NCBI GenBank assembly: GCA_013151915.1
Contig: JAADHJ010000048.1
Coordinates: 1-20,434, forward strand
DNA from: Deltaproteobacteria bacterium
GTDB taxonomy: Bacteria > BMS3Abin14
Length of the DNA stretch: 20,434 nt
Reading direction: 5' to 3'
This document shows positions 762 through 16,229 of the stretch, in pieces; the stretch's first letter is position 1; each line of letters begins with the position of its first letter. The notes under the pieces were generated by a model that saw nothing but the letters and a program-made list of their open reading frames with translations, did not search any database and was not told the origin of the DNA. Made by a program: the position numbers and the translations under genes.

Positions 762-1628
762 ATGTCGGATTCGATTCTGGTAACCGGTGCTACGGGAACC
801 CTTGGAAACCAGGTTGTGGAACAGTTGAGTCAGAGGGGTTACAAGGTGCGCGCGGCGGTACATTCTCCGGAGAGAGCCACGTCTCTTAACGGCAGAGCCA
901 ATGAGATAGTATCCCTCGACTTCAGCCGTCCTGAGACCTTTGAAAGGGCGCTGGACGGTATAGACAAGGTCTTTTTTCTCAGTCCCCCTACAGAAGACAT
1001 GGTGGAAACTGGAACAAGGTTTGCTGAATCGGCTAAAGAGGCGGGGGTCCGTCGCATCGTCCGCCAATCGGGCATGGGGGCTGATGCCGATCCGGGCATA
1101 ACCCTTGGGCACTGGCACCGGGGCGTCGAACGGGCAATCGAGGATACGGGAATGGAGTGGACCCACCTTAGACCGAACTCCTTCATGCAGAATTTCGTCG
1201 CCTTCATGTCACAGACGATAAAGGAACAGGGGACCTTCTACCTTCCATGGGGCGACGGCAATATCAGCCTTGTGGATGTGCGGGACATTGCAACGGTGGC
1301 GGTGGAGTCACTGACAGGCGATGGACATGAGGGACAATCATATGAGATCACAGGTCCTGAAGCCCTGTCTGGCGAGGATTGCTCCCGGATCTTTTCGGAA
1401 GTACTGAACCGGACCGTTCAGTACGTTGATGTCCCTGAAGATGCTGCCAGACAGTCCATGCAGGGCATGGGGATACCGGATTGGTACGTCGATGTCATCA
1501 TGGAGCTGTATGCTATCAACAAGGCCGGATATACAGCCGAAGTGAAAGATACTGTGGCGCGGGTTACGGGTAAAGATCCGCGTCATTTCGAGCAGTTCGT
1601 CCAGGATTACGTTGAGGTGTTCAGTTAG
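762..1628 (+). CDS. NmrA-like NAD(P)H-binding protein (atypical SDR / Rossmann fold)
   Basis: MSDSILVTGATGTLGNQVV is a Rossmann GxxGxxG N-terminus typical of the NmrA/SDR-a family. AGGAGG sits 6 nt before the ATG at 762; the track ORF from 708 is an upstream extension. Confidence 0.8.
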   Translation: MSDSILVTGATGTLGNQVVEQLSQRGYKVRAAVHSPERATSLNGRANEIVSLDFSRPETFERALDGIDKVFFLSPPTEDMVETGTRFAESAKEAGVRRIVRQSGMGADADPGITLGHWHRGVERAIEDTGMEWTHLRPNSFMQNFVAFMSQTIKEQGTFYLPWGDGNISLVDVRDIATVAVESLTGDGHEGQSYEITGPEALSGEDCSRIFSEVLNRTVQYVDVPEDAARQSMQGMGIPDWYVDVIMELYAINKAGYTAEVKDTVARVTGKDPRHFEQFVQDYVEVFS

Positions 1629-3028
1629 ATAATGCGGAAATTTTCCACCAGGGTACAGCGCCGCTGCCGTGTATAAGTGCGCGCCGAGGTTAACCCCTCA
1701 CCTGTCGGCCCGGCGATGGTGAAGGCGGTGTGGCCTTCGCCACCAAGACCAAGCCCGGCATAGGAGGGACCGTTCTTGACAAAAAGCGTGGTCTGAATGG
1801 CCCGGGCGAAGGCTGTCATGTTGTCCACATTGGTCGAGTGCATTATGGCCGTGTGCCGGTTGCCCTGTTCCACCTCTACGGCAAAATTAATTCCTTCCTG
1901 GACATTCGCCACTCGCACGATGGGCATGACGGGCATCATCTGCTCAATCCAGACAAGGGGGTGATCCTTACCGGCCTCGAATATGGCCAGCCGATACTCT
2001 TCCCCCAGTTCTATGCCCACCTCTTTGAGGATTACCTGGACATTTTTCCCGATAAAGGCGGGGTTGATCCTTCCCTCTTTGGTAACCACCAACTCTGTGA
2101 CCTTTTCCGCCTCGTCAGGTGTCAGGAAGTAGGCCTTGCCGGTTTCCTGCATGAACTTGATCAGGCAATCGACCACTTCGTCTACAGCGAGAACCTCTTT
2201 TTCACAGGTGCAGAAGATATTATTGTTGATGCTCGCTCCATCGACGATAGATTTGGCCGCATTTCGTATGTTGGCAGTTTCGTCCACCAGGACAGGCGGA
2301 TTTCCGGCGCCGGCCCCGATAGCTTTTTTACCCGAACGCAAGACCGCATTCACCGCCGCCTTGCCGCCTGTGGCCACCAGCATGTTGACCTTCGGATGTT
2401 TCATGATCTCCTTGGCCGTTTCCAAGGTAGGATGGCTGACGGAAGAGATCAGGCCGACAGGCCCTCCAACATCGACGATGGCCTGATGGAGCAGCCGAAT
2501 CATACCTGTGCTGGTCTCCCTGGCGCTGGGGTGTGGGTTGAAAACCACGGCATTTCCAGCGGCTATCATGCTGATGGAATTATGAATTACGGTGCCGGTG
2601 GGATTTGTGATGGGCGTCAGGGAACCGATAACTCCTACCGGGGCGTACTCCAGAAGAGTCAGGCCGTCGTCGCCGCTTTTGGCAACAGGTTGAATGTCCT
2701 CCGTACCGGGCGTTTTTGTGGAACAGAGAATGTTTTCCTTGACCTTATCCTCGAAACGGCCCAGCTTCGTTTCCCTTACCGCTATAGCGGACATCTTCTC
2801 ATTGTTATCAAGAGACGTTTTTCTCATGGCGGCGATCATCTTGTCCCGCTGTGCGAGGGTCATGGAAATCAACTTTTTTTGTGCCTGGACAGCGCCATTG
2901 ACGGCTTCCTCGACTGTCCGGTAAATACCATCACCATCGGGTTCGGCAACCGCAGGATTCTCCTCGCTCACGAGATTTTCCAGCACTTTCTGGATGACGG
3001 TGGTGACTAAATCCTGGTTGACATTCAT
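1625..3028 (-). CDS. pduP: CoA-acylating aldehyde dehydrogenase (PduP/EutE family) with N-terminal encapsulation-peptide-like helix
   Basis: ALDH-superfamily protein whose N-terminus (MNVNQDLVTTVIQKVLENLV) is followed by an acidic linker, as in PduP. The likely start is M30 of the track ORF, preceded by AAGGAGGAG. The upstream track extension starts with GTG and overlaps the neighbouring gene. This is the last gene of the minus-strand operon. Confidence 0.85.
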   Translation of the reverse strand: MNVNQDLVTTVIQKVLENLVSEENPAVAEPDGDGIYRTVEEAVNGAVQAQKKLISMTLAQRDKMIAAMRKTSLDNNEKMSAIAVRETKLGRFEDKVKENILCSTKTPGTEDIQPVAKSGDDGLTLLEYAPVGVIGSLTPITNPTGTVIHNSISMIAAGNAVVFNPHPSARETSTGMIRLLHQAIVDVGGPVGLISSVSHPTLETAKEIMKHPKVNMLVATGGKAAVNAVLRSGKKAIGAGAGNPPVLVDETANIRNAAKSIVDGASINNNIFCTCEKEVLAVDEVVDCLIKFMQETGKAYFLTPDEAEKVTELVVTKEGRINPAFIGKNVQVILKEVGIELGEEYRLAIFEAGKDHPLVWIEQMMPVMPIVRVANVQEGINFAVEVEQGNRHTAIMHSTNVDNMTAFARAIQTTLFVKNGPSYAGLGLGGEGHTAFTIAGPTGEGLTSARTYTRQRRCTLVENFRII

Positions 3029-3086
3029 TTTACTCCTCCTTGTTCGCGCTTCATCATCAAGTTTCGTCCGTAATATCTTTTTAAAG

Positions 3087-3668
3087 TCAGTTGCCGCAGG
3101 CTGCCAGAAAAACACCGCCGATCAGAATCTGCAGTTCCCGCCGATCCAGCGGCAAACCTTCCTTTTCAAGAGCAAGAGCCAAAGATTCCTCCAGATCATG
3201 GATCCATCCTGTATCCCGAAGGCCGGGCGTCAGAACCGATCTGAAATTTTCGGACCAGCGTTCCATCTCGACGAAAGCTTGAGTAACGGGTTCCGCGACC
3301 CGCATATCCTGTTCCACGGTTCCGCCGCTAATGCCGATGGCCCCCACAACTTCCCCATCGAACCAGAGAGGAAAACCGCCGCCGAACAGAATGATCCTCC
3401 CACCGTGCGTGTTCTGAATCCCGGAAAGTACACCGTCTGACCGGGCCAACCTGCCAAGCTCATCCGTTGGCATTCGAAGGGAAGCCGCAGTGAAAGCCTT
3501 GGAACGCGCTATCTCGGAACTGGCTGGAAGCGCCCCCTTCATACGGGCGAAAAATTGGAGGGAGCCCTCCTCATCCGCCAGGGCTATGGCCATGGGAACT
3601 CCCATATCCCGAGCGGCCGCTTCGGCAACAGCGCAAAGGATCCGGGCTATCGAATAGGGAAGCTTCAT
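3087..3668 (-). CDS. DUF336 / GlcG-like (PduO C-terminal-domain-like) heme-binding protein, stand-alone
   Basis: The motif GGGFPLWFDGEVVGAIGISGGTVEQDMRVA matches the GlcG/HbpS/PduO C-domain signature. It carries about 55 extra C-terminal residues of unknown nature. Confidence 0.75.
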   Translation of the reverse strand: MKLPYSIARILCAVAEAAARDMGVPMAIALADEEGSLQFFARMKGALPASSEIARSKAFTAASLRMPTDELGRLARSDGVLSGIQNTHGGRIILFGGGFPLWFDGEVVGAIGISGGTVEQDMRVAEPVTQAFVEMERWSENFRSVLTPGLRDTGWIHDLEESLALALEKEGLPLDRRELQILIGGVFLAACGN

Positions 3669-3681
3669 TATCTCGAACCTC

Positions 3682-4254
3682 TCATAAGGAACCCTCCAGG
3701 ATGGTTGCCAGTGCTTGATTCACCGTTGCTTCCACTTCCATGGCCCAAGCCAGGACAAAGATCAGATCCCCCAGCCGGTTGAAATAGGTGAGGAGACGTT
3801 CCGCCCTCCCCGACTCCATGTTCAGTTGAACGATGGCACGTTCGCCCCGGCGACAGACCGCCCTGGCGACATGAAGCACAGCGCTGTCAATTGAACTCCC
3901 AGGGATGACAAATCGTCCAGGCGAACCGTGGGATTCCTGAAATTCATCGATCCATTTTTCGATCTTCCTGACGTCCTCTTCACCGATGCGTTTTTTCAAT
4001 GAAATCCGGCTGTCGGGATTGGAGGCCAATTCCGAACTTGCGATGAAGATGTCCTCCTGCACGGAAAATATGACATCTCTTGCAGGATCGGACGTAATCA
4101 GGGCACGGGCGGTTCCGAGGTGACACTGGAGTTCGTCGAGAATACCATAGGTTTCGACACGCGTGTCACTCTTCCACACGGACTCACCGCTCAAAAGCCG
4201 TGTGCGCCCCTCGTCCCCTTTTCGGGTATATATCCTTTCCTCCGTGTCCCTCAT
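3682..4254 (-). CDS. pduO: PduO-type ATP:cob(I)alamin adenosyltransferase (N-terminal PduO domain only)
   Basis: IYTRKGDEGRTRLLSGESVWKSDTRVETYGILDEL matches the PduO-type adenosyltransferase N-terminal signature. At 190 aa it is the catalytic domain alone. Confidence 0.85.
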   Translation of the reverse strand: MRDTEERIYTRKGDEGRTRLLSGESVWKSDTRVETYGILDELQCHLGTARALITSDPARDVIFSVQEDIFIASSELASNPDSRISLKKRIGEEDVRKIEKWIDEFQESHGSPGRFVIPGSSIDSAVLHVARAVCRRGERAIVQLNMESGRAERLLTYFNRLGDLIFVLAWAMEVEATVNQALATILEGSL

Positions 4255-4389
4255 TGATAACCTCGCAAAAAGTCATCAACGCGCCCATTGAAGGGCGCCC
4301 AAATCGAAGATTTGTGAGGAAAGTGAAAATGACACTTTTCGCTTTCCGTGGAGTAAAAAGCCATTAACGGACTTTTTACGACCCTATCT

Positions 4390-4659
4390 TTACTGAACGT
4401 CAATTTCATCAATAATCCCAATGATCGTTGCGTCCACGGGACACCCATCATCGCCTACCGCCTGCCGGGCACCACTCCCCTGAACAACAAAGACTCTTTC
4501 CCCCACACCGGCTCCCACAGCATCGATAGCAACCAGCGTCCCACCCTGGGGTTCCTCTGTCCTGGGATCCAGCGGCTGGATGACCTGGATCTTGCTGCCA
4601 ACCAGATTTTCATGCTTGCGTGTGGCTACGACTGTCCCAATGACGCGGGCGATTATCAT
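4390..4659 (-). CDS. pduN: BMC vertex pentamer protein (PduN/EutN/CcmL family, BMC-P)
   Basis: 89 aa with the MIIARVIGTVVATRKHENL N-terminus typical of EutN/PduN. AGGAGG ribosome-binding site upstream. Confidence 0.9.
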   Translation of the reverse strand: MIIARVIGTVVATRKHENLVGSKIQVIQPLDPRTEEPQGGTLVAIDAVGAGVGERVFVVQGSGARQAVGDDGCPVDATIIGIIDEIDVQ

Positions 4660-4683
4660 GACGTTTTTCCTCCTTAACGGGGA

Positions 4684-5490
4684 TCAGAATTCCTCATTAT
4701 CAGCCATCAGTATCCCATACCGGGCGGCAAGATCCTGAGCCAAAGGCGTGAAGCGCCATTGCGGCTGGACCATGACTGCAGCACCCAGACGTTGGGCGTG
4801 GTTGATGTCAGCCGCAGTAACCAGCGGACCCGCCGGCCTGAAGACCCTTCCATGTGTATCCGGGACGCCGGCAGTCCCTTCTTCTTGAAGATTTTCCCTG
4901 CTCAGAACGGTGTTCACTGTGTCTCGCAACCTGCCTACATCGGTCAACCGGCAACCGTAGGAAACCAGAGTGTCGAGGATATTGTCCATGGCATCCCGCA
5001 GGGCCTTCGATCCTCTGTGGAAGCCCAGTTCCTTCCGCCCATAGGCCGTGGGATCGACTCCATTTCGAGCCACGATCACCGGTTTGCCCATAAAAAGGCC
5101 GTGGAGAATACAGTTCGTTGCCGTGTTGTCGGCAATGAGCATCCTGATCTTGGCAGCAGTGTTGACGCTCAGCAAAGGCACGATCACCGCCCGGACCTGC
5201 TTGAGACATCCGAGCCAGTTCGCAGTGGAAACCCGGCCCTGATGGGGAAACCCGGCCAGCCCGTCGTGTATGACCGGTGCGTACAGCTGTTCGGCAGACG
5301 TAGTGAAGACCATCCTCACCTCATATCCGTCGAGGATAAGCCGGCGAAGCTGGTTCACAACCTCGCCCATTCCGACGGTAGCTCCCGAAAAAACCGCCAG
5401 CACAATTCCCTTACTGCCATCGGCGCCTACGATCGCGGCCACTTTTCCGACAACCTCATTGACGATATTCTGTATGATGCGCCCATCCAT
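4684..5490 (-). CDS. BMC-associated protein: PduM-like N-terminal helix + flavoprotein-fold (HFCD/PF02441-like) core + PduM-like C-terminal motif
   Basis: The N-terminus MDGRIIQNIVNEVVGKV is an amphipathic helix resembling encapsulation peptides and the PduM N-terminus. The middle resembles the flavoprotein (Dfp/CoaC-like) family: LAVFSGATVGMGEVVNQLRRL...VRMVFT and VIVPLLSVNTAAKIRMLIADN...PVIVARN. The C-terminus has a TPLAQDLAARYGI motif reminiscent of PduM. Functional assignment is tentative. Confidence 0.5.
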   Translation of the reverse strand: MDGRIIQNIVNEVVGKVAAIVGADGSKGIVLAVFSGATVGMGEVVNQLRRLILDGYEVRMVFTTSAEQLYAPVIHDGLAGFPHQGRVSTANWLGCLKQVRAVIVPLLSVNTAAKIRMLIADNTATNCILHGLFMGKPVIVARNGVDPTAYGRKELGFHRGSKALRDAMDNILDTLVSYGCRLTDVGRLRDTVNTVLSRENLQEEGTAGVPDTHGRVFRPAGPLVTAADINHAQRLGAAVMVQPQWRFTPLAQDLAARYGILMADNEEF

Positions 5491-5499
5491 GATAAGAAC

Positions 5500-6390
5500 C
5501 TAGGCCATCTTCCCACTTGACCGCATTGACATGGAGGACACCTGTTCATCGAAGCAGGTCAGGGCGATTCCAAGAGGTGTCACCAGCAGTGGATTACAGG
5601 GCTGTACAACCTCCAGGCCCGTCTGGTCCTGCATCACCTGGGCGATACCTGGAAAGCAGCTGGTGCCCCCCACCAGATAGATCGTCTCAATCGAGGGAAA
5701 CCCTGTTAAGTGGCGCTTTACAATGGAACCCATTTTCTCGAAAACCGGTCGGACAAGGTGGATGATCTCCATCTGCCGGGTGGTATCGCGTTTGAGTTTC
5801 TCCGCCAGGTGGGAGTCTATTTTAAAGTTGCCCGCAAGGACCAGATCCACGTGGATGCCGCCCGTCGGTTCATCGGCTGAATATATAACCTCTCCACCCT
5901 CCAGGATGGAGATCCCCGTCGTTCCCCCACCGACATCAACCACGGCGCCATCCATGATTTCCAAAGCCCGTGAGGCTGCGCTTGGTTCATCCATCATGCC
6001 GACCACTTCCAGCCCGGCCGCCTCCAGAATATTGGAAAATGCCCTGGCATTCGGCCCGGAGGTACCGGGCGGGTAGGCGACCGCGGCAGACCGAATGGGA
6101 TAGCCGCCTTCCTGAAGGTCCTTCACCTGCCGGCGCAGGATCGCAACAGCTCCCAGGTAATCGAACACCAGCCCGTCCCGGACACTTGAATGGCTGCGGG
6201 TGAGCGCTCCAGCCACCGGATTTCTTTCGGCATCCACCACCGCCGTCACGATGTATGCTGTGCCAAGATCAACGCCTGCGGACAGGGGTCCATCGACTCC
6301 CCGCTTACCGTTCAGGTCCAGAGACAATGCGAAGGCATTTATCCTTCCATTTGCCGTTTCGTTGACATGGTTTGACAGGTTCCGGTTCAC
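5500..6390 (-). CDS. eutJ: EutJ-like actin/Hsp70-fold ATPase (putative chaperone)
   Basis: GVDLGTAYIV, VVDVGGGTTGISIL and EPTGGIHVDLVLAGN match EutJ. A GTG start overlaps the stop of the upstream gene (GTGA), suggesting translational coupling. Confidence 0.85.
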   Translation of the reverse strand: MNRNLSNHVNETANGRINAFALSLDLNGKRGVDGPLSAGVDLGTAYIVTAVVDAERNPVAGALTRSHSSVRDGLVFDYLGAVAILRRQVKDLQEGGYPIRSAAVAYPPGTSGPNARAFSNILEAAGLEVVGMMDEPSAASRALEIMDGAVVDVGGGTTGISILEGGEVIYSADEPTGGIHVDLVLAGNFKIDSHLAEKLKRDTTRQMEIIHLVRPVFEKMGSIVKRHLTGFPSIETIYLVGGTSCFPGIAQVMQDQTGLEVVQPCNPLLVTPLGIALTCFDEQVSSMSMRSSGKMA

Positions 6391-7007
6391 ACTTCTTTTC
6401 CTGTGAGGCGCTGCAAACTGGTTTCCGCGGCACTGGTAGCCCGTTCAACATCAGACTGTTTTCCACCGAGGTATAGGCGACCCACCGCACCGTAGGTCCT
6501 GCAATCCACAAGGGTGATGCGTGAGTTTTTTTCCGCCTCGTTGGCCGCGAGTGTAATGTAGGCCGCGGGTTGAACTTCCAGGATGTAAAGATCCTGCCCC
6601 GGAAGCAGCATCGAGCTGAGGCGTGAAACGTTGACCATCTGGGCGTGATAGGGGTTGACCTTGTGGATCACCTGAGAACTGAGGATCTTCGGTTTGATCC
6701 GGTCCTCGATCTTCAGTCCAAGTGTCTTCAGAACCGCTTGACCGGCGTGCTTCACCTCCTCCTGGGTCTGGGCGTGAAATTCCAGAACACCAAAGTGTCT
6801 TTCCACCACCATCATTCCAGGCTGGACGTTGGCCGATTTGAGGGCCGCGTCGGTCACATCGTTTATCTTGACCCCTGGAGATATCTCCACCAGGATTGCA
6901 GCCATCCCCGGAACAGGAATATAACCCCGGGCATTGGCCCCCATATAGGCGGCAAACTGGGGCTGTAATCGATCCAGGTACACGTATGAACGTAGTTCCA
7001 CTGTCAT
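6387..7007 (-). CDS. BMC-T shell protein (tandem permuted BMC domains, PduB/EutL-like, short form)
   Basis: Two BMC-like repeats (DAALKSANVQ..., AANEAEKNSRITLV...GRLYLGGKQSDVERATSAA) in 206 aa. The distinctive N-terminus ELRSYVYLDRLQPQFAAYMG suggests a permuted order like PduB/EutL. Confidence 0.75.
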   Translation of the reverse strand: MTVELRSYVYLDRLQPQFAAYMGANARGYIPVPGMAAILVEISPGVKINDVTDAALKSANVQPGMMVVERHFGVLEFHAQTQEEVKHAGQAVLKTLGLKIEDRIKPKILSSQVIHKVNPYHAQMVNVSRLSSMLLPGQDLYILEVQPAAYITLAANEAEKNSRITLVDCRTYGAVGRLYLGGKQSDVERATSAAETSLQRLTGKEV

Positions 7008-7555
7008 TTTTCTCTCCTTGCCGAACTATCGCCCGGCTTTCCCCTGGTCCTTTTTCCCGCAGCTCCACTCTTGCGGCCTGAAGTCTTACGGCCTGTTTTT
7101 CTTGGAGTGCTTTTTTTCCCGGCTCCTGTGGAATCCGGATCAGGTTTTTCTTTAGCAGCAGTCACGGCAACCTCGATCTCCATGGAAGCCGATTCCGCTT
7201 CGGGTTCCACGGCCGGTTCGTCTGAACTCTTCTCAGAGGGCTCAGGCTCTTCCTGCACCTTTTCGAGCTCATCCGGAGCAGTGGGCGCGGACGGTTTGAT
7301 TGGAATCTGATCGTCCGGCCGGGGGATCACGTGACTGGCAGTGAGAGTACCGATCTTTTCAGCCGCCGCGGTTCCCGCAGCCACCGCGGCCTGCACTGCT
7401 CCAACGTCACCGAGAAACTTGACCGTAACCAGCCCCTCCAGTGTTATTTCGTATCCGAGGAAAACCACATCGGCTGACTTCGTGGCCGCATCCGCCGCTT
7501 CAATGGCGGCTGTGTATCCCATGGTTTCGATAAGACCAAGGCTTCGTTTTTTCAT
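7004..7555 (-). CDS. BMC-H shell protein (PduA/EutM-like) with ~95-aa disordered acidic-then-basic C-terminal tail
   Basis: Canonical BMC domain (LGLIETMGYTAAIEAADAATKSADVVFLGYE...GDVGAVQAAV...HVIPRP). It is followed by a Pro/Glu-rich acidic stretch and an Arg/Lys/Gly-rich terminus (KKSTPRKTGRKTSGRKSGAAGKRTRGKPG). Confidence 0.85.
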   Translation of the reverse strand: MKKRSLGLIETMGYTAAIEAADAATKSADVVFLGYEITLEGLVTVKFLGDVGAVQAAVAAGTAAAEKIGTLTASHVIPRPDDQIPIKPSAPTAPDELEKVQEEPEPSEKSSDEPAVEPEAESASMEIEVAVTAAKEKPDPDSTGAGKKSTPRKTGRKTSGRKSGAAGKRTRGKPGDSSARREK

Positions 7556-7608
7556 TGGACGCCTCTACCTTTCCAGTTCAATTTTGACAACCCGCCCCGG
7601 GATGCATG

Positions 7609-8109
7609 TTACGCGTACATCCCGCCTGATGGACTTTTTGCGAGGCCATCAATTTTAGCTATGGCTTCTCTGACCAGCTGTTCCAACTGCTCCTGGGAAA
7701 ACTTGATGGGACAAAAAGCATCCGGCTCGCCATCAGATCCGTCGGCGAGGATCATGGGATTGCCCTTCACCAGACGCGCTGCGTTGGCCCCGAGGTTCCT
7801 CAAGGGTGTTTCTTCCAGGGGTCCGGGACCAAGGATGAAAAGCGGTGTTTTCTCCGGCAGATCCCGGTGGTGTAAAACCGCGAATCCCCGATCTTCGTCA
7901 ACACCGACCCCCACGCCGACCGGTGACCTGTCGGCAGCTTGTTTGGCCATGTTTTCAGGGGGACCCTGTTTCGCCTCGAAGATCTTTGCGGGAACACCCT
8001 CTTCTTCCAGGCCCAGCAGGATTCTTTCCACTATCCTGGAGCCGGAAAGCCCCGTCCCATAGATATAGACGGCGGGTTTGTCTTCAGGTTGTGCGAACCT
8101 CGGATTCAT
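7609..8109 (-). CDS. pduH: Diol/glycerol dehydratase reactivase small (beta) subunit (PduH/DhaG/GdrB-like) with C-terminal extension
   Basis: LGLEEEGVP, SPVGVGVGV and LRNLGANAARLVK match DhaG/PduH. An extra ~45 C-terminal residues contain an amphipathic helix (SQEQLEQLVREAIAKIDGL). Confidence 0.8.
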   Translation of the reverse strand: MNPRFAQPEDKPAVYIYGTGLSGSRIVERILLGLEEEGVPAKIFEAKQGPPENMAKQAADRSPVGVGVGVDEDRGFAVLHHRDLPEKTPLFILGPGPLEETPLRNLGANAARLVKGNPMILADGSDGEPDAFCPIKFSQEQLEQLVREAIAKIDGLAKSPSGGMYA

Positions 8110-8120
8110 GGCCGATTCTC

Positions 8121-9944
8121 TCAGTTTTCCCCGTTCACGTACGCCAAAACCAGTCCTGTCGCAACAGCATTGCGTGGACCCTCCACACCCCTGACATTGG
8201 CTCTGCCGGTCACCACTCCACTTTCCACAAGGACATCGGAGATCATTTTTGGGATCTCAAAATCAAGCGCCGATCCTCCAACAAGAGCGACAAAGCTGAT
8301 GAGCCGGATATTGCCGGCAGGAGCGATCCTCTCAAGGGCACGCAACGCATTTCGAACGAAAACCCTTTTTTTCGCATTCTGACGAACCTGAACGATCTTC
8401 GATAAAGGTTCGCTGATCTCCAGGGGAATGGGCCCTTCACCGCCAAGAACCACAACTCGTCCAAAGAGCCTGGGTTCGAGGGGTTCATGAAAAAACTGAA
8501 CCGAACCATCCTCATGACGCATATGAAAAAGGGTTTCCACCTTGGCCAGGGGATTAACCTTGATCCTTTCAGCCAGATCACGGTCGTCCAGCCCGAGTTC
8601 CGTATCGATGAGCAAGGTGACCATGTCTCCCGCACCGGCCAGATGGATGCTTTTGATCTCACCGGCCTCGCTGATCAGGGAAGCATCCGTCGATCCCCCT
8701 CCCAGGTCCAGAATGGCCATAGGAGGTTTGAGACCCGGCGTAGTGAGCGCGCCGCGTATAGCCATCTCAGCTTCTACACCCCCGATGTTGGTAGAAACCG
8801 AGATCTCCTCTTCCAGTTTCCTGGCAAGACGCTGCATGGGGAGTTTATGGGTTTTTACCATCGCTGCCAGTCCTACGGCATTACCCATGGAATACTCTCC
8901 CGCCAGGCTTCCTAAAACCCTTTGGGGTTTCAAGGTATCTACAGCGAGTATGTCCTGAACCTGGATGGCGCTCACAGGCTGATCCGTCAGGTCGGCCATG
9001 ACTGTCCGGACATGTTCGAACATTCCTCCCACATGGGTCCCAGCTTCGGCCTGAATTTCCAGCAGCGGAGAGACGAGAGCCACCTTTTTCATAATAGCTT
9101 CAGCCCCCTCCTCCACCTTCACCACTTCCTTCCGGTTTTCCCCCATCAATACGATGCTTCCAGCCGGGATTCGGCGTTCCTCGATGTCTCCCCTGGGTGT
9201 TTTAATCACCACGGCGCTTCGTGTGCCCATGAGAGCCCTGGCTATGGGGACCACCTGTCTGGTCTCATCGGGATCCAGATCAAAGAGCGTGGCAATATCG
9301 TAGGGGTTGGACAGCTTCTCGATCGTCCTGCCCTGCGAGGCGACCTCAACAGCCGCAGGCATGTCCAGGGGAACCCTGTCAACATGTCTTACCTCGTCCA
9401 CAATGGGGATAGACCTGTGCAGCCGGTTATTGATGAGCACCGCGTCGTCCTTCTGGACGATGGCACCAGCCACAATGAGGTCCCTCGAAATTGCCCTGGT
9501 CAACCGCTCGGCCGCTTCTTTGAAGCCGAATTCACCGGGAATGATCACGATCCAGGGTCCAGACACCTGGGTCGTTTCCAGTTGGTCGAGGGTGATGGTC
9601 GTCCCGATGCCAAGACCTAATCCTCCGGGGGTCCCGGGATTGTGACCGATCATGGCTGATTCGGTGATGACGGTTTCTGTGATCGTCTCCATGGCTACAT
9701 CACCGATGACAGGCGCAGCCTCGTTAAGAAGGATCAGGCTGAGGTCATTTCGCTCAAGTCCCGCCAACGCAAGGCTCTTATCCAGAGCATCGATGACCCC
9801 CAAAGCATTGCGTATGGTCCCCTTGATCCCTATGGTTCTTACCAGGGAACTGGAAAGTATGTCCGCTTTGCCCGCTGTGGCCACTCTCCCTATGGCAACC
9901 TCAGTCGAGTTGTTTCCAACGTCTACCCCGGCGATAAAAGTCAT
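8121..9944 (-). CDS. pduG: Diol/glycerol dehydratase reactivase large (alpha) subunit (PduG/DhaF/GdrA-like)
   Basis: 607 aa. An N-terminal ATPase motif (MTFIAGVDVGNNSTEVA) and a second actin-like motif (ILDLGGGSTDASLI) are typical of reactivase alpha subunits. Confidence 0.9.
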   Translation of the reverse strand: MTFIAGVDVGNNSTEVAIGRVATAGKADILSSSLVRTIGIKGTIRNALGVIDALDKSLALAGLERNDLSLILLNEAAPVIGDVAMETITETVITESAMIGHNPGTPGGLGLGIGTTITLDQLETTQVSGPWIVIIPGEFGFKEAAERLTRAISRDLIVAGAIVQKDDAVLINNRLHRSIPIVDEVRHVDRVPLDMPAAVEVASQGRTIEKLSNPYDIATLFDLDPDETRQVVPIARALMGTRSAVVIKTPRGDIEERRIPAGSIVLMGENRKEVVKVEEGAEAIMKKVALVSPLLEIQAEAGTHVGGMFEHVRTVMADLTDQPVSAIQVQDILAVDTLKPQRVLGSLAGEYSMGNAVGLAAMVKTHKLPMQRLARKLEEEISVSTNIGGVEAEMAIRGALTTPGLKPPMAILDLGGGSTDASLISEAGEIKSIHLAGAGDMVTLLIDTELGLDDRDLAERIKVNPLAKVETLFHMRHEDGSVQFFHEPLEPRLFGRVVVLGGEGPIPLEISEPLSKIVQVRQNAKKRVFVRNALRALERIAPAGNIRLISFVALVGGSALDFEIPKMISDVLVESGVVTGRANVRGVEGPRNAVATGLVLAYVNGEN

Positions 9945-9960
9945 ACACCGAAAACCCCGA

Positions 9961-10530
9961 CTATTTCTTTAAACGTCCGCGTCCCTCATACACCACCGCT
10001 GCTTCGTGGACCAGAGCGGCACAGACACGGGCGTCGTATTTGGATTCCAACTCTCCGGCGATGTCCAGGAGCTCCTGTTTGGTGGACCGGTAAGGTCTCA
10101 TAGCATTGTATATCTCCAGGACTCGTTCATCCGGGATTCTGGTCAGTTCCGCGGCTCTGCGCAGGTTTGCGGCCAGGCTTGGACGTCCCGCACTTTCAGC
10201 GATCTGGGCCTGATATTCCAGGGTTTCAGGGCGAATCTTAATGTCTTCGAAAGACAAGCTTCCTTCTACGACTTTGTCGAGAGTTATATCTTCGAGTTTC
10301 AGACCGCTGGCGGACTGGACCAAATCGGGCCGATTGTTGGCAAGAGGATAATCCCTTTTCGCGTCAAGCCCCTCTTTCGAGCCGGCGGGCTGCCGAGCGC
10401 CCCCGCCCGATTCGCCCTGTATCGCGGACATCACCTGCTTGACCACCTCCGCTACGCGATCGGGGGAAATATCAAGGCCTTTGGCCTTGATCATGTCTTC
10501 CACCTTTTTGGACATATAATCGTCAGCCAT
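9961..10530 (-). CDS. pduE: B12-dependent diol/glycerol dehydratase small (gamma) subunit with ~50-aa N-terminal extension
   Basis: The core (DYPLA...DITLDKV...LEYQAQIAE...RRAAELTRIPDERVLEIYNAMRPYRS) matches PduE/DhaB3. The N-terminal extension has an amphipathic helix (SPDRVAEVVKQVMSAI) followed by a Gly-rich linker. Confidence 0.9.
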   Translation of the reverse strand: MADDYMSKKVEDMIKAKGLDISPDRVAEVVKQVMSAIQGESGGGARQPAGSKEGLDAKRDYPLANNRPDLVQSASGLKLEDITLDKVVEGSLSFEDIKIRPETLEYQAQIAESAGRPSLAANLRRAAELTRIPDERVLEIYNAMRPYRSTKQELLDIAGELESKYDARVCAALVHEAAVVYEGRGRLKK

Positions 10531-10594
10531 GATTTCCTTTCCTTGTTACCGGGTTATCCTGCTATCCGCAGGAAAGTTTCAACCTGGCCTGGAA

Positions 10595-11233
10595 CTAGAT
10601 GGAAAGCTCAACCGTTTTCCTGTTCTGATCCACCGCCTGGACTTCTTTGTTGTGAAGCAGAGCCGCCAGCCCCTGGTAGCGGGGTCTGGCCATGGGATCG
10701 TTGCGAACAGGAACAGGATTGGGGCTCTCACCTTTTGCATACTTGGCCGCATTGCGTCCGATGGCTCTGAACGTCTCCAGTTCCACCAGAGGTGACTGGG
10801 AGAACAGCTCCAGGTTCTGCAGAGGAGCCAGGTCTTTCTGGTGGATCACTGTGGTTCCCCGGGAAAGAATGCCTATGCCGATTCCCGATCCACTGAGTTT
10901 AGCAGCCTCGTGACCAATGAATGCCACGTCAGCGGTCCTGTAAACCCTGACAAGTCTGGGATGAAGGCCTTCCTCTTCAATTCCGGCCATCAGTTCCCGC
11001 AGGACCTCCCTGTGGGGAAGCCCGATAATCGTCTTGGTCATTGTCCTGCCGAATGCCTGCGGGAGCCCGATAACGACCTCGCTACGATCAGTCCCCGGTT
11101 CAGCTTCTCCATCTTCGGTCATATCCATCGGTGGGACATCCACATCAGCGTTAAATCCGGAATCCTCTTCTCCCTGCATCTGCCCGAGGACCTCAAGGAT
11201 AATCTGTTTCACCATCTCTTCAGAAATTTTCAT
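10595..11233 (-). CDS. pduD: B12-dependent diol/glycerol dehydratase medium (beta) subunit with N-terminal encapsulation peptide
   Basis: The core (GIEEEGLHPRLVRV...LSGSGIGIGI.SRGTTVIHQKDL.PLQNLELFSQSPL) matches PduD/DhaB2. The N-terminus MKISEEMVKQIILEVLGQM resembles the PduD encapsulation peptide and is followed by an acidic linker. Confidence 0.9.
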   Translation of the reverse strand: MKISEEMVKQIILEVLGQMQGEEDSGFNADVDVPPMDMTEDGEAEPGTDRSEVVIGLPQAFGRTMTKTIIGLPHREVLRELMAGIEEEGLHPRLVRVYRTADVAFIGHEAAKLSGSGIGIGILSRGTTVIHQKDLAPLQNLELFSQSPLVELETFRAIGRNAAKYAKGESPNPVPVRNDPMARPRYQGLAALLHNKEVQAVDQNRKTVELSI

Positions 11234-11259
11234 TACATATATCCTCCACTCCGGCAGCG

Positions 11260-12927
11260 CTATACGTCCTCAGGACTGATTGCCTGGGGGATGTTCTTGA
11301 GTATCTCCCACCTTTCCCCATCCAGACGATACCCTGTCCCGGGCCCCTCGTAATCGTTGGGATCATTCACGGCACTCAGAACAACGAAATCATCATCGAA
11401 TATGGCGGAGGTATGGAGATAATCCCCGGAAACTTTCTGTTTGAGCATGTTCAGGACTCCTTCCGCCACGTCCTTGAAACCATGTTTTGCAAGAGCACGA
11501 ACCACATCCAGCCCGTTTCCTCCCCGTTTCATGAATTCGTCGATGCTGCGCAGATCCTCCGGTACGTTCCGATCGGGCACATCTTTGCTGCCATGGGCAT
11601 AAGTAACCGCTTCCACCTCTGCATCGGTAATCGGCGGCAATCGCAGTTCCTCAAAGATAGCCTGGAGCGCTCGGGCGGCTTTGTTCCGAATAGCGATAAT
11701 ATCCTCCTCATTCACCGGACGCAGGCCGCCATCGACCTGGAAATCCCTCTGAAGAACCAGATAATCATCGTAATCGTCACAATCGTGCGTGGATCCGGCG
11801 AACATGTTGTCGTAGTTGGGAACAGTGCTGTATCCCGAGAAGATAAAATCTGTGCCGGGCAGAAATTGCATGAGCATTCGTGCCGTATTGCGGATAGGAG
11901 AATGAGTGAAGGTCTGATCATTGCCGGACGCCACCTCCATGTCCATCAGGACGGTCGCGATGTTCTCAGCCAGAACCGCTCGAATCCCGGAAGGCACAGC
12001 CCCCGGAACTCCTATGCAGCTGATCGAACCGTTCTGAAGACCCTGTACACCTGCGCCCTTGGTGATCATGACACAGCGGATTTCGAGGTAGAGCATGGAT
12101 TTGCGTTCCGCATAACCCATCTGCACCTCTGAGCCCGTCCCGGAGGTGAACCTCATCTTCACTCCCCTAGAGGCGTAGGCCGATGCCAGAAAGGCCTTTG
12201 ACCAGGGGGTATCATCCCCATCAACGAAAACCTGCTCGGTGCCGTAAACGGAAACCGTTTCCGCGTATGCGGTCAGCCCCCGCATCCCCATGGTGAGTTC
12301 CAGCGCCTCTTCCACAGCGCACTGCGTCAGCACACCGGGACGACCCGTCTGGGAACCTACAAGTATGGAGAGCGCATTCATGGGAGCGTAGCGTCCCACA
12401 CCCACAGTGGTTTCCAGTTCCGTAAATCCGCGAAAAGCCCCTTCCGCCGCATCAGCTGCCAGAAGAGCGGGGGTATCTTTGAGGTTGGTGACATGGCCCT
12501 GGTTTGACGGTGTTCGCCTCGCCCGGAGCTTCTGCATGGTCATCATGAGCTCGACCACATTCATTACCTTGAGGATATCGAGGATCTTGGCCGGAGTCAT
12601 TCCGACAGCCAGGCGAACGATTTCGGATCTCGGTACATGGATGTCCACCAGCATACGGGCGAACTCCACCGAATCGATGGCCATGGCTTCAGCGGCCACT
12701 TCTGTGTCAATGCAGTGGTCGGCAATCCAGGTGTCGATCATATCGAATTCCCGGCGGGGTTTCCCGTCCAGTTCCACTACTTTTCCACTTTCAATCCTGA
12801 TCCCAGGTTCAGGGTCGTAGGGGCTATCCATAGCGACCAGACCTACTTCGACCCATTCTTTAATAAAGCCGTCCTTATTAACCGAACGATCGGCCAATAC
12901 CTGGAAGCGTTTCTGTCTTTTGCTCAT
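11260..12927 (-). CDS. pduC: B12-dependent diol/glycerol dehydratase large (alpha) subunit
   Basis: 555 aa. MSKRQKRFQVLADRSVNKDGFIKEW and many blocks (e.g. SGTGSEVQMGYAE..., TKGAGVQGLQNGSISCIG) are typical of PduC/DhaB1/GldA-alpha. Confidence 0.95.
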   Translation of the reverse strand: MSKRQKRFQVLADRSVNKDGFIKEWVEVGLVAMDSPYDPEPGIRIESGKVVELDGKPRREFDMIDTWIADHCIDTEVAAEAMAIDSVEFARMLVDIHVPRSEIVRLAVGMTPAKILDILKVMNVVELMMTMQKLRARRTPSNQGHVTNLKDTPALLAADAAEGAFRGFTELETTVGVGRYAPMNALSILVGSQTGRPGVLTQCAVEEALELTMGMRGLTAYAETVSVYGTEQVFVDGDDTPWSKAFLASAYASRGVKMRFTSGTGSEVQMGYAERKSMLYLEIRCVMITKGAGVQGLQNGSISCIGVPGAVPSGIRAVLAENIATVLMDMEVASGNDQTFTHSPIRNTARMLMQFLPGTDFIFSGYSTVPNYDNMFAGSTHDCDDYDDYLVLQRDFQVDGGLRPVNEEDIIAIRNKAARALQAIFEELRLPPITDAEVEAVTYAHGSKDVPDRNVPEDLRSIDEFMKRGGNGLDVVRALAKHGFKDVAEGVLNMLKQKVSGDYLHTSAIFDDDFVVLSAVNDPNDYEGPGTGYRLDGERWEILKNIPQAISPEDV

Positions 12928-12957
12928 TTGTCGCTCCCTTTTTTTTCCTGCTCTTTA

Positions 12958-13767
12958 TCAGATATAAGGCTCGGTCACAGGTTTGGGTACATCACCCCAT
13001 GCGCCCAACAACTTGATGCCAACCTCGCGGCCGGAAATCACAGCCTGGCGTACCGCACCGGAATCACCGCTGACCCAGATCATGACTTCGTTGGTCAAAC
13101 TGGTGCCTTTCGCCGGCGATGCATACCCTACGACCTCCACGTCCGCAGCCTTGACCGCGGTGTCGATCATAAGCACCCCAATAACCGCAGGGGCCCCGAG
13201 GATCAACCCGAACGCTTTTCCTTCGGGGGTATTGAACACCTTATGCAGTCCCCTGCTGGCCCTGGCCGTATACTGAAGCTCCAGATGCCCCTGATCGTTG
13301 GTATAAACGTCACCGAAATATTTGGGCAGCGTCTCAAGGGTGACCTCAACAGCGCGCCGGGCATCCGAAACGTCCTCGGCGGCAAACACGATCAGGTTTC
13401 CATGGCCCGCTCCACCTTTCGTATCCCTGGGCATTTCAATGGATACGATTTCAGTGTTGGTAGCCTTGACGGCATCGTCGGCAGCCATAATCTGCGGTCC
13501 GGCGCCGATACGACCACCGATAACCCCGATGGACCGATATTTATTATCGATTCCCATCAGATCCTGGATGATGGGATCCAGGTTTGCGATCACGATACCC
13601 TGGGTTTCCCCCAGGCCGACCCCGACGAACTCCGTCACCTGGACCAGGTCCTCCGAAGGCACCGGGTTGCTGGAACGCTGTTCCGGCGCGACTTTTTCAT
13701 CGGACTGGGCAGAGCCGACCCTGCTCATCACTTCCGCTAAAACTTTGTTAATTAATTCCTCTTGCAT
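12958..13767 (-). CDS. pduB: PduB-type BMC-T shell protein (tandem permuted BMC domains)
   Basis: Near-colinear match to PduB: RSIGVIGGRIGAGPQIMAADDAVKATNTEIVSIEMPRDTKGGAGHG...GDVY.N..GH.ELQYTARAS...VISGDSGAVRQAV. Confidence 0.9.
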   Translation of the reverse strand: MQEELINKVLAEVMSRVGSAQSDEKVAPEQRSSNPVPSEDLVQVTEFVGVGLGETQGIVIANLDPIIQDLMGIDNKYRSIGVIGGRIGAGPQIMAADDAVKATNTEIVSIEMPRDTKGGAGHGNLIVFAAEDVSDARRAVEVTLETLPKYFGDVYTNDQGHLELQYTARASRGLHKVFNTPEGKAFGLILGAPAVIGVLMIDTAVKAADVEVVGYASPAKGTSLTNEVMIWVSGDSGAVRQAVISGREVGIKLLGAWGDVPKPVTEPYI

Positions 13768-13820
13768 CGGTTATTTCCTCCTGGTTATATGCCGATGTCA
13801 TTCTCGATCCAGGACGATTT

Positions 13821-14108
13821 CTAACTGGACTCCACAGACTTGGGCAGGATCTTTTCCACATCCTGATGAGGCCTCGGAATGACGTGAACGGACACAACTT
13901 CACCGACCTTCTGGGCGGCGGCGGCACCCGCGTCGGTTGCGGCCTTGACGGCCCCGACGTCACCGCGGACCATGGTGGTCACAAGCCCGGCCCCGATCTT
14001 GACGTTGCCCACCAACACTACATTGGCTGCCTTGACCATGGCATCCGCGGCTTCAATGTTGGGGACCAGCCCCCTTGTTTCGATCATTCCCAACGCTTCC
14101 TTAATCAT
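13821..14108 (-). CDS. pduA: BMC-H shell protein (PduA/PduJ-like)
   Basis: [34 protein letters not shown]...GDVGAVKAA...HVIPRP. The likely start is M21 of the track ORF, preceded by a GGAGA ribosome-binding site. Confidence 0.9.
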
Positions 14109-14153
14109 GATACTTTCTCCTATCACCCTGCCGGGTACGGTAAACAACAGCTT

Positions 14154-14180
14154 CGGGGGGCGCTCCAACAGCAGCCCCCG
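14154..14180 (-). other. GC hairpin in gldA-to-shell-gene spacer (possible partial terminator/attenuator or processing site)
   Basis: CGGGGG...CCCCCG 6-bp GC stem with a ~15-nt loop. On the minus strand it is followed by AAGCUGUUGUUUA, which is only weakly U-rich. It lies in the 143-nt gap between gldA and the first shell gene. Confidence 0.3.
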
Positions 14181-14251
14181 TAGCTGTCACAAGGTTCTTT
14201 GAAAGGCTAAGCCGAACTCTCCTCATTTTGCTTCAGGATGCAATGTCACTC

Positions 14252-15358
14252 TCAATTCTGCCTTTTAAATTCTCGACCGAGAGCGTCTGCCGTCCAGATG
14301 GCCGATTCGACCATATCTGCCGTAACGGGGAACCAGGTGGCGTGTATTGTTTCCCCCTCCGCGGTCGTCGCCTCAGCCACTTTCCTGATATCTTCAGTTG
14401 TGGGGTTCACAAGCCCGATATCCTTGAGAGTAATGGGCAGGCCGACGCTTTCACAGAAATTGAGAACTTCGTAGATATCTTCCGAGGGTCTACCTTCGAG
14501 GACCAACTGGGTCAGGGTGCCAAAGGCCACTTTCTGACCGTGGTATTTATCGTGGGATTGCTCGAGCATGGTAAATCCGTTGTGGACGGAGTGAGACGCG
14601 GCGAGGCCTCCGCTCTCAAATCCCAGTCCGCTCAGAAGCGTATTGGCCTCGACAATGGCCTCGACAGCGGGCGTTACCGAATTTTTCTCCACCGCCAGTT
14701 TAGCCTGAAGGCCGGACTCCAGAAGGGTATCGTAGCAGAGTCTCGCCAAAGCCATGGCGGAAAGGGTGGGTGGTGTTCCGCCCGTCAGGACATTAGGCTT
14801 GCAGCTCTTTGCGCACGTGTCGGCCTCCCAGAAGGTGGCCAGAGCATCGCCCATACCCGAAACGAGAAACTCCACGGGGGCCTGGGCCACGACAGTGGTG
14901 TCAACGAGAACGCACTCAGGGTTTTTTGGGAGAACCAGGTAGCGTTCGAATACACCGTCGTCGGTGTAAATGACCGAAAGTGCTGAACAGGGAGCATCAG
15001 TAGCGGCGATGGTGGGCACAACAATGACGGGAACTTTCATCTCATGGGCCACGGCTTTCCCTGTGTCGATAACCTTGCCCCCTCCAGCGGCTATTACCAG
15101 GTCCGCTCCGTGGGCCTTTCCCACATCCACCAGCCGTTGAATCTCTTTGTCACAACACTCGCCGTTAAAACTCTCTGATCTACAGTCGATGTCTTTCTCC
15201 CTCAAGCTGGCCTCGATGGAACTGCCGCAGGATGAAAGAGCCGTCCGTCCTCCCGTCAAGAGAGCTTTAGTACCGAAATTACCGGCGTGAGTTCCGATTT
15301 CCTTAATAGTTCCGGCACCTTGAATGTACCTTGATGGCGCCAAAAGCAATCTTCCCAT
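14252..15358 (-). CDS. gldA: Glycerol dehydrogenase (GldA family, metal-dependent polyol dehydrogenase)
   Basis: Colinear with E. coli/B. stearothermophilus GldA: GGGKVIDTGKAVAH, VPTIAATDAPCSALSVIYTDDGVFERYL, TPAVEAIVEANTLLSGLGFESGGLAASH, HGQKVAFGTL, ATTAEGETIH. GGGAGGAGG ribosome-binding site upstream. It is the first gene of the minus-strand operon. Confidence 0.9.
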   Translation of the reverse strand: MGRLLLAPSRYIQGAGTIKEIGTHAGNFGTKALLTGGRTALSSCGSSIEASLREKDIDCRSESFNGECCDKEIQRLVDVGKAHGADLVIAAGGGKVIDTGKAVAHEMKVPVIVVPTIAATDAPCSALSVIYTDDGVFERYLVLPKNPECVLVDTTVVAQAPVEFLVSGMGDALATFWEADTCAKSCKPNVLTGGTPPTLSAMALARLCYDTLLESGLQAKLAVEKNSVTPAVEAIVEANTLLSGLGFESGGLAASHSVHNGFTMLEQSHDKYHGQKVAFGTLTQLVLEGRPSEDIYEVLNFCESVGLPITLKDIGLVNPTTEDIRKVAEATTAEGETIHATWFPVTADMVESAIWTADALGREFKRQN

Positions 15359-16186: not shown

Positions 16187-16229
16187 TACCACCTCCATTA
16201 TGTTTGGCAATAGAGGGTCGTCCTGAGGC

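Follow-up and report, generated by a model that had tools for sequence, protein, structure and literature searches.

How NAD+ and coenzyme A (CoA) are regenerated in a propanediol-utilisation (PDU) bacterial microcompartment (BMC) whose locus lacks the usual recycling genes is the question raised by an operon on contig JAADHJ010000048.1 of a metagenome-assembled genome (MAG; GCA_013151915.1). The window analysed was this entire contig of 20,434 bp, with locus tags GXP52_093xx; the MAG is fragmentary, and the results hold for the contig and not for the rest of the genome. The operon is real and intact, it encodes a B12-dependent microcompartment for propanediol/glycerol utilisation, and its source is an uncultured deltaproteobacterium. 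Its locus type, PDU1D, has been catalogued before, and it falls within the clade that has a CcmP-like double-stacking BMC-T shell protein (Tdp). Gene identities were obtained from Pfam and NCBIfam profile searches of the window proteins, and the comparisons with E. coli Pdu proteins were made by sequence alignment; the compartment itself is predicted from its genes.

Sixteen co-directional minus-strand open reading frames (ORFs) run from 15358 to 1625, with gaps of at most about 143 nt and with two pairs overlapping by 4 nt. Their order from 5' to 3' is GldA, PduA/J-like BMC-H, PduB, PduC, PduD, PduE, PduG and PduH, followed by a tailed BMC-H, the CcmP-like BMC-Tdp, EutJ, the PF02441 flavoprotein, BMC-P, the PduO-type protein, DUF336 and PduP. 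The first-pass annotation of this DNA had described a 16-gene operon at 1625-15358 with two BMC-H, two BMC-T and one BMC-P shell proteins, a B12 dehydratase with its reactivase, an adenosyltransferase and an aldehyde dehydrogenase (AldDH). All these ORFs were found in place and their assignments were confirmed by Pfam and NCBIfam. Also its view of the 3' side as complete holds, the operon being closed there by a convergent NmrA-like gene (708-1628, plus strand) with a TetR gene downstream. The two features by which a PDU locus is recognised are both present: the diol dehydratase PduCDE (PF02286, PF02288 and PF02287 families) is encoded together with shell genes, and the shell set includes BMC-H, BMC-P and a PduB-type BMC-T.

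PDU1D loci were defined by Axen 2014 (PMC4207490, Text S1) as having no PduS, PduX or PocR and as having a PF02441 flavoprotein, a EutJ-like protein and a PF02659 membrane protein; they also include a PocR-domain histidine kinase with a response regulator (PMC4207490). The window has no PduS, PduX or AraC-type PocR, it encodes both the PF02441 flavoprotein and a EutJ-like protein, and it has a PocR-kinase two-component system. The regulatory genes lie on the same strand as the operon, upstream of it beyond a gap of 430 nt. The PocR-domain histidine kinase is a PDU1D-type regulator, and its homologues adjoin the gene module in the related loci L011 and L022. The sole PDU1D feature absent from the window is the PF02659 (DUF204/MntP-like) membrane protein, the gene of which is accessory and not required by Sutter 2021 (PMC8217296).

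The catalogue of Sutter 2021 (PMC8217296) lists 182 PDU1D loci, and the PDU1D loci of Proteobacteria and one Acidobacterium are the only PDU loci in it with BMC-Tdp. Its Tdp tree includes Syntrophobacterales GWC2_56_13, Acidobacteria CXZ00 (CXZ00_14075), Telmatospirillum 26-4b1, an alphaproteobacterium and Desulfatibacillum DSM 16219. Two of these genomes, Telmatospirillum 26-4b1 (L023) and Acidobacteria CXZ00 (L029), were among the relatives recovered here. Homologue P0056 of the flavoprotein corresponds to CXZ00_14085, which is encoded two genes away from CXZ00_14075, the Tdp in the catalogue, and L029, the contig with exactly the CXZ00_14085 protein, has a short form of the locus with no PduL and with a zinc-dependent alcohol dehydrogenase (Zn-ADH) after PduP. 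By the published definition, the named genomes and the synteny, the locus is PDU1D of the Tdp-bearing clade. The gene set had earlier been considered atypical and in need of explanation, which was overstated, as it matches PDU1D of both Axen 2014 and Sutter 2021. The first-pass annotation had itself conceded that its case would fall if the set proved to be a described PDU subtype, and this is to a large extent what was found.

The recycling genes reported as missing are indeed missing from the contig. Tblastn with the E. coli Pdu proteins (from L026) found no ortholog of PduL, PduQ, PduS, PduU, PduV or PduM in the window, and the few PduT, PduJ and PduK matches all fell on the PduA-like gene. 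Also the PduL of Telmatospirillum gave no match in the window, and PduW was not found among the window ORFs, all coding space being otherwise accounted for. The tblastn searches and the ORF inventory thus bear out the reported absence of PduL, PduQ, PduS, PduU and PduV. With PduK the claim holds only in part: no separate PduK match was obtained, but the place of PduK is taken by the tailed BMC-H. That PduL, PduQ, PduS and PduW are absent is not the result of a contig edge or of gene decay. From the canonical metabolosome core, the locus has an AldDH with an encapsulation-peptide-like helix at its N-terminus (MNVNQDLVTTVIQKVLENLV) and has no phosphotransacylase (PduL PF06130 or Pta). For the alcohol dehydrogenase, the annotation had proposed a search with the iron-dependent alcohol dehydrogenase (Fe-ADH) family PF00465. 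Run on the window, this search was positive inside the operon because GldA matches the family (3.5e-32), yet GldA has no targeting extension and is not a PduQ ortholog, with 20% identity to E. coli PduQ over 189 aa (E = 0.003).

Related loci were recovered via homologues of the flavoprotein, of which a metagenomic protein collection held 78 (39-97% identity), together with an alignment-based genome scan. Approximately 22 independent loci keep the 15-gene order A-B-C-D-E-G-H-tailed BMC-H-Tdp-EutJ-flavoprotein-N-O-DUF336-P, and their host groups are Desulfomonilaceae, Syntrophobacteraceae, Syntrophaceae, Desulfobacterales, Acidobacteriota, Solirubrobacterales and Alphaproteobacteria. PduL together with a PduQ-type Fe-ADH was present within 10 kb of the flavoprotein in two loci only, L023 of Telmatospirillum siberiense and L027/L030 of a JGI metagenome. 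In 20 of the 21 species-representative loci (L005-L025, the exception being L023), neither was found within 10 kb, contigs of 0.4-4.7 Mb included. Behind the module, both long forms encode a MIP channel, a PduQ-like Fe-ADH, two BMC-H, PduL with an N-terminal extension of about 45 aa, a second AldDH (503 aa), PduS and PduT; this block covers L023:13700-20774 in Telmatospirillum. L022 and L024 keep PduS/PduT only, downstream. The family therefore consists of a conserved core module and variable accessory genes, generally with no PduL in the locus and frequently with a linked dehydrogenase of variable type, and the window represents the short form.

The Telmatospirillum PduL is 61-69% identical to the PduLs of Rhodospirillum rubrum, Rhodopseudomonas palustris and Rhodobacter capsulatus. 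The possibility that a Telmatospirillum-type adjacent block is a separate GRM3 locus was considered and rejected for L027/L030, where no glycyl-radical enzyme is encoded within 10 kb.

Incomplete cores are otherwise common: among the non-carboxysome loci of Axen 2014 (PMC4207490), AldDH is present in 94%, Fe-ADH in 76% and PduL in 66%, and several named locus types have no PduL and/or Fe-ADH (Sutter 2021, PMC8217296). As the locus belongs to a catalogued subtype, the missing recycling genes are a family trait and not a unique anomaly. The incomplete-core metabolosomes of Sutter 2021 (EUT2B/D without alcohol dehydrogenase, SPU2, HO and MIC) share with the window an AldDH without a phosphotransacylase and/or Fe-ADH in the locus. 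The window differs from them in that its signature enzyme and substrate class are known and that long-form relatives with the full core exist. The literature search found no experimental study of the PDU1D Tdp subtype and no publication that remarks explicitly on the missing phosphotransacylase.

Within the PDU1D Tdp clade, the window shares the PduA to PduP order, the split PduO/DUF336, EutJ, the flavoprotein, Tdp, the tailed BMC-H and the PocR-kinase system, as well as the absence of PduS and AraC-type PocR; CXZ00 is likewise without PduL. The differences concern the dehydrogenases, with GldA leading the operon here, a Zn-ADH in CXZ00 and, in other Deltaproteobacteria, an Ldh-type enzyme encoded after PduP, and also the PF02659 protein and a second DUF336 gene, both carried by many relatives and absent from the window. 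With the PDU1AB locus of Salmonella and E. coli (pduABCDEGHJKLMNOPQSTUVWX) the window shares the signature enzyme, the reactivase, the adenosyltransferase, PduP and PduA/B/N, in the same relative order and at 38-76% identity, with the flavoprotein placed where PduM sits. In contrast to PDU1AB, it has no PduL, PduQ ortholog, PduS/T, PduU, PduV, PduW or PduX, it adds Tdp and EutJ, its PduO is split in two, and its regulation is of two-component type instead of AraC-type PocR.

Accessory genes were surveyed by clustering the flanking ORFs and running Pfam on representatives. A linked NAD-dependent dehydrogenase occurs in about 17 of the approximately 22 loci, and its family varies. GldA-type genes are present in eight loci, i.e. 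the window, L008, L011, L022 and L024 (74-80% identical, located upstream or downstream) and three Acidobacteriaceae loci (50%). Ldh/Mdh-type genes (PF00056/PF02866) follow PduP in six (L004/L006, counted once, L005, L007, L008, L014 and L028), so that L008 carries both GldA-type and Ldh-type genes. Zn-ADH genes are found in L017 and L029 and PduQ-type genes in L023 and L027. None of these linked dehydrogenases shows a clear targeting extension. In EUT2C and EUT2H loci, Sutter 2021 (PMC8217296) assigns the part of alcohol dehydrogenase to a PF02866 enzyme, and the distribution of the linked genes fits a takeover of the PduQ role by non-orthologous enzymes. For CoA, candidate genes are sporadic: L016 has an acetyl-CoA hydrolase/transferase gene immediately behind PduP, and L024 has a fused one nearby. 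A PF02659 membrane protein gene follows PduP in six relatives.

Some relatives have further peculiarities. L004/L006 (CP070692.1) and L009 (CP070843.1) are complete MAG chromosomes with the module from PduG onward and with PduA-D not adjoining, and in L004 a Meth_synt_2 gene borders a truncated PduE of 112 aa; such loci may have decayed or been split, and would then have no local signature enzyme. A Dak1 dihydroxyacetone kinase gene is located near the module in the acidobacterial L015 (L015:16937-17965), and in L017 and L029 the Zn-ADH is followed by CobT, CobS, CobC and CobU genes. These genes hint at glycerol/dihydroxyacetone links and at a locus-encoded assembly of the B12 lower ligand in Acidobacteria.

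Table. Annotated features of the window, listed in the direction of transcription of the minus strand, with the principal support for each.
Feature	Position	Strand	Support
PEP-CTERM sorting-signal protein with signal peptide	19347-20039	-	upstream of regulatory genes
Sensor histidine kinase: N-terminal PocR, then PAS, HisKA and HATPase domains	16959..18650	-	Pfam PF10114 PocR 1.4e-44
NarL/LuxR-type response regulator (receiver and GerE helix-turn-helix)	16230..16889	-	Pfam PF00072, PF00196; NCBIfam NarL-like
Receiver-only response regulator	15788..16210	-	Pfam PF00072 8.7e-17
GldA-family Zn-dependent glycerol/1,2-diol dehydrogenase (Fe-ADH superfamily), first operon gene	14252..15358	-	NCBIfam NF006941 506 bits, cutoff 336
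PduA/PduJ-like basal BMC-H	13821..14108 (ORF to 14168)	-	Pfam BMC 5e-27; 76% identity to E. coli PduA from residue 21
PduB-type BMC-T (Tsp), N-terminal amphipathic extension	12958..13767	-	NCBIfam NF011944 397 bits; 56% identity to E. coli PduB
PduC, B12-dependent diol/glycerol dehydratase large subunit	11260..12927	-	Pfam PF02286 1029 bits; 68% identity to E. coli PduC
PduD, dehydratase medium subunit	10595..11233	-	NCBIfam NF011616 312 bits, full length
PduE, dehydratase small subunit	9961..10530	-	PduE-type models align from residues 22-30
PduG, diol dehydratase reactivase large subunit	8121..9944	-	TIGR04491 934 bits; Pfam DDR and DDR_swiveling
PduH, reactivase small subunit	7609..8109	-	Pfam PF02288 residues 11-119
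BMC-H with tail of ~95 aa, 183 aa	7004..7555	-	Pfam BMC residues 5-80
CcmP-like double-stacking BMC-T (Tdp)	6387..7007	-	218 bits vs CcmP 5LSR, residues 1-205
EutJ-family actin/Hsp70-fold predicted ATPase	5500..6390	-	NCBIfam NF011660 EutJ 335 bits
PF02441 flavoprotein	4684..5490	-	Pfam PF02441 1.1e-6
BMC-P vertex protein (PduN/EutN/CcmL family)	4390..4659	-	Pfam PF03319 1.4e-31
PduO-type ATP:cob(I)alamin adenosyltransferase, N-terminal domain only	3682..4254	-	TIGR00636 158 bits; Pfam PF01923
DUF336/HbpS-like protein, PduO C-terminal domain as separate gene	3087..3668	-	Pfam PF03928 5e-38, residues 5-126
PduP/EutE-type CoA-acylating aldehyde dehydrogenase	1625..3028 (ORF to 3115)	-	NCBIfam NF011927 639 bits

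Several of the enzymes (Table) have terminal extensions of the compartment type; the hydrophobic-moment scoring applied to protein termini was only weakly discriminating. PduD begins with an encapsulation-peptide-like helix (MKISEEMVKQIILEVLGQM). At its N-terminus PduE is about 55 aa longer than the non-compartment DhaB3, the DhaB3 model aligning from residue 59 only, and it has an amphipathic stretch at residues 24-38. PduH is 40% identical to E. coli PduH over residues 9-119 and longer than it (166 aa vs 116 aa), with a C-terminal extension of about 45 aa; the amphipathic stretch FSQEQLEQLVREAIAKI within this extension (residues 135-149) may be a C-terminal encapsulation peptide. The true start of PduP is M30, giving a protein of 467 aa that matches NOY87473.1 exactly and is 57% identical to a Thermoanaerobacter PDU1D AldDH and 43% to E. 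coli PduP. The DUF336 protein is 38% identical to residues 198-323 of E. coli PduO and has a C-terminal extension of about 65 aa. GldA aligned with the solved glycerol dehydrogenase 4MCA over residues 3-367 (388 bits), i.e. at full length and with no terminal extension.

In the shell, the PduA-like protein probably starts at M21, which gives 95 aa and fits the homologues. The tailed BMC-H occupies the PduK position and has a C-terminal extension as in PduK; over its BMC domain it is 37% identical to E. coli PduK and 55% to PduJ. Its tail is of low complexity, first acidic (E/P/S-rich) and then strongly basic (K/R/G-rich), with zero cysteines, so an Fe-S cluster of the kind present in some extended BMC-H proteins was ruled out. 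The tail resembles the charged-tail BMC-H described for GRM3A. Tdp matches NOY87479.1 exactly and consists of tandem permuted BMC domains. It scored 274 bits against the NCBIfam CcmP model, under the equivalog cutoff of 340, and the Tdp of the relatives carry PF27545 CsoS1D_N. The Tdp proteins of the window and of L023 share 63% identity, and their synteny is identical. In a full-length alignment of the window Tdp with CcmP 5LSR, the Glu69/Arg70 pair, which gates the pore in CcmP, is conserved.

The flavoprotein was modelled with AlphaFold (AF2) from 33 homologues at a predicted local distance difference test (pLDDT) score of 86. The model has an N-terminal helix (residues 3-21) with a linker, a Rossmann-like domain, a disordered loop (201-213) and, at the C-terminus, a small alpha/beta domain (222-262), and the helix resembles an encapsulation peptide. 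The encapsulation-peptide hidden Markov model (HMM) HMM02441_04.PDU1D, built from 24 sequences, is included in a supplementary file of Sutter 2021 (PMC8217296), so a targeting peptide on the PDU1D flavoprotein has already been recorded. In Foldseek the central domain matched UbiX, phosphopantothenoylcysteine (PPC) decarboxylases, EpiD/MrsD and DmrB with E about 1e-5 (HFCD/UbiX fold), and a family-invariant P-x-x-S-x-N-x-x-x-K stretch aligned with the corresponding motif of dipicolinate synthase B. A sequence-only search of the PDB with the flavoprotein profile gave marginal matches (E about 0.03). Judging from the fold and the motif, flavin binding by the protein is plausible.

The gene also occupies the position of PduM, directly upstream of pduN, when compared with E. 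coli PduM (L026:24394-24885). BLASTP gave 29% identity to PduM over residues 1-83, and in profile-profile comparison both the N-terminal region (E = 2.6e-5, probability 75%) and the C-terminal domain of about 50 aa (E = 2e-5, probability 77%) matched PduM. The Pfam profile of PduM (PF15953) gave no match to the flavoprotein, the profile-profile matches being at both termini only. The protein thus appears to be a long homologue of PduM bearing a flavin mononucleotide (FMN) domain, with homology at its ends and not membership of the family, and PduM appears to be without the flavin-binding loop. As PduM is a structural component of the microcompartment in Salmonella (PMC3471927), the flavoprotein may, if the homology is real, have a similar structural or assembly role, and such a role would weaken it as a stand-in for PduQ or PduS. 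In the B12-independent GRM3 loci, EutJ and DUF336 likewise occur together with PF02441 flavoproteins (Axen 2014, PMC4207490), which argues against a purely cobalamin-related role. No paper linking PduM to flavoproteins was found in the literature search; the kinship, if real, would be the first evolutionary handle on the poorly understood PduM.

The first-pass annotation had offered three explanations for the missing recycling, i.e. exchange through the shell, GldA or the flavoprotein as stand-ins, and genes elsewhere in the genome, and these remain the right ones to consider. The favoured reading, held with moderate confidence, is that of a short-form PDU1D metabolosome in which the recycling genes are absent as a family trait and the supply of NAD+ and CoA is solved by substitutes or by exchange. 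From what is known of the families, the PocR-kinase and the LuxR-type regulator would switch the operon on upon a diol signal. PduA, the tailed BMC-H, PduB, Tdp and PduN would form a shell enclosing PduCDE, PduGH, PduO, PduP and the flavoprotein; the N- and C-terminal amphipathic helices would recruit PduCDE, PduP, the flavoprotein and probably PduGH. PduCDE would dehydrate 1,2-propanediol, and perhaps glycerol or ethylene glycol as well, which yields the aldehyde, PduGH and PduO would maintain adenosyl-B12, and PduP would oxidise the aldehyde to acyl-CoA. NAD+ would then most likely be restored by the non-orthologous linked dehydrogenase, here of GldA type, and/or by NAD(H) exchange across the shell. 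The acyl-CoA would not be turned into acyl-phosphate inside: either it would exit and CoA re-enter, or it would be handled by enzymes elsewhere, such as a CoA-transferase or the methylmalonyl-CoA pathway typical of such anaerobes. The hosts are mostly anaerobic respirers or syntrophs, and such organisms can feed propionyl-CoA into the methylmalonyl-CoA pathway, which would make the branch of phosphotransacylase and kinase dispensable. The conclusion drawn in PMC3471927 is that internal recycling operates alongside exchange through pores.

Several observations weigh against the short-form reading. GldA has no extension or encapsulation peptide, it is not known to reduce propionaldehyde, and it is missing from more than half of the relatives, so it could be a cytosolic feeder enzyme rather than a recycler. 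Most members have no solution for CoA recycling encoded in the locus. Tdp is present also in the long forms, and its presence does not track the absence of PduL. The literature search found no expression, proteomic or biochemical data on any member. Finally, L023 and L027/L030 add a block of MIP channel, PduQ, PduL, PduS and PduT to the same module, and a similar block could sit elsewhere in the fragmentary MAG.

This last point leads to the main rival reading, according to which a satellite locus with a PduF-like channel, PduQ, extra BMC-H, PduL, a second AldDH, PduS and PduT provides classical recycling of CoA, NAD+ and cobalamin. It is a possible reading, clearly less probable than the short-form one. 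Exactly such a block follows the module in the two long forms, in L023 separated from it by unrelated membrane-protein genes and thus behaving as a detachable unit, and L022 and L024 retain its PduS/PduT part only. Propionibacterium freudenreichii keeps pduQ at a distant locus (PMC11255663), and the window makes up just one whole contig, of 20 kb, in a fragmentary MAG. However, 20 of the 21 loci (L005-L025) have no PduL within 10 kb, megabase contigs included, and the linked dehydrogenases, being of different families from locus to locus, suggest local replacement. The best 120 of 7386 PduL homologues, mostly alphaproteobacterial, included no short-form host contig, which is a weak test.

A further reading supposes open cofactor pools, the Tdp pore conducting NAD(H), CoA and acyl-CoA and the FMN flavoprotein replacing PduS in cob(II)alamin reduction for PduO; it is considered unlikely. 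Tdp occurs among the PDU types only in the PDU1D Tdp clade, and Sutter 2021 (PMC8217296) suggests that large cofactors may go through Tdp pores. The window Tdp has kept the gating residues, PduS is absent though PduO and PduGH are present, and the flavoprotein combines an encapsulation-like helix and an FMN-type fold with conserved motifs matching PF02441 members. On the other hand, both Tdp and the flavoprotein persist in the long forms that have PduL, PduQ and PduS/PduT, and the persistence of Tdp there weakens its role as a cofactor gate. HFCD-fold proteins are not known to be NADH oxidases. The occurrence of PF02441 flavoproteins with EutJ and DUF336 in B12-independent GRM3 loci (Axen 2014, PMC4207490) and the homology to PduM, structural in Salmonella (PMC3471927), also speak against this reading. 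Equally doubtful is the extended form of this idea, in which the 15-gene short form would be a self-sufficient minimal PDU organelle on open pools: NAD(H), CoA and propionyl-CoA would pass via Tdp, the acyl-CoA would go to cytosolic methylmalonyl-CoA or CoA-transferase routes, and the flavoprotein, as an ancestral cofactor-binding PduM, would donate electrons in place of PduS.

A glycerol-fermenting, dha-like system, with GldA as the oxidative branch, the dehydratase acting on glycerol and PDU-type recycling irrelevant, is very improbable: a GldA-family gene does head the operon, Dak1 lies near the module in L015 and the dehydratase models cover propanediol and glycerol enzymes alike, but the window has no DhaT or DhaK, PduD, PduE and PduP bear compartment-type extensions, PduB, PduN and PduP are of PDU type, GldA is missing from most relatives, and the oxidation of 3-hydroxypropionaldehyde via PduP would add NADH rather than consume it.

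For annotation, PDU1D (Tdp clade) is a suitable label for the locus, and the missing PduL, PduQ and PduS should be taken as a clade-typical feature and not as a sign of incomplete assembly. The short and long forms of the same 15-gene module, with or without the PduQ/PduL/PduS/PduT block, constitute a natural experiment that bears on the need for internal recycling when the host respires or routes propionyl-CoA into central metabolism. Current models are not overturned, the permeability of shells to NAD+ and incomplete cores being already documented, and CoA recycling in this subtype is a fair but modest question.

Promoter and terminator scans of the window gave counts at background level, and the Rfam search of the window gave no match to a riboswitch or to any other RNA family. 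Between the regulators and gldA, the 430-nt gap contains a GC-rich palindromic hairpin, CCCCCGAAACGGGGG (15656-15675), flanked by an A-run and a T-run; it could be a terminator that works in both directions and insulates the regulators from the operon. The PEP-CTERM protein, whose gene lies upstream of the regulators, probably has nothing to do with the compartment. Nearly identical contigs (about 97%) are present in marine metagenomes, and one of these, the 97%-identical L001, lacks the NmrA-like gene that the window has at 708-1628; there PduP and the TetR gene are separated by a 45-aa ORF only (L001:11707-11844), which indicates a strain-level indel at the 3' border of the operon.

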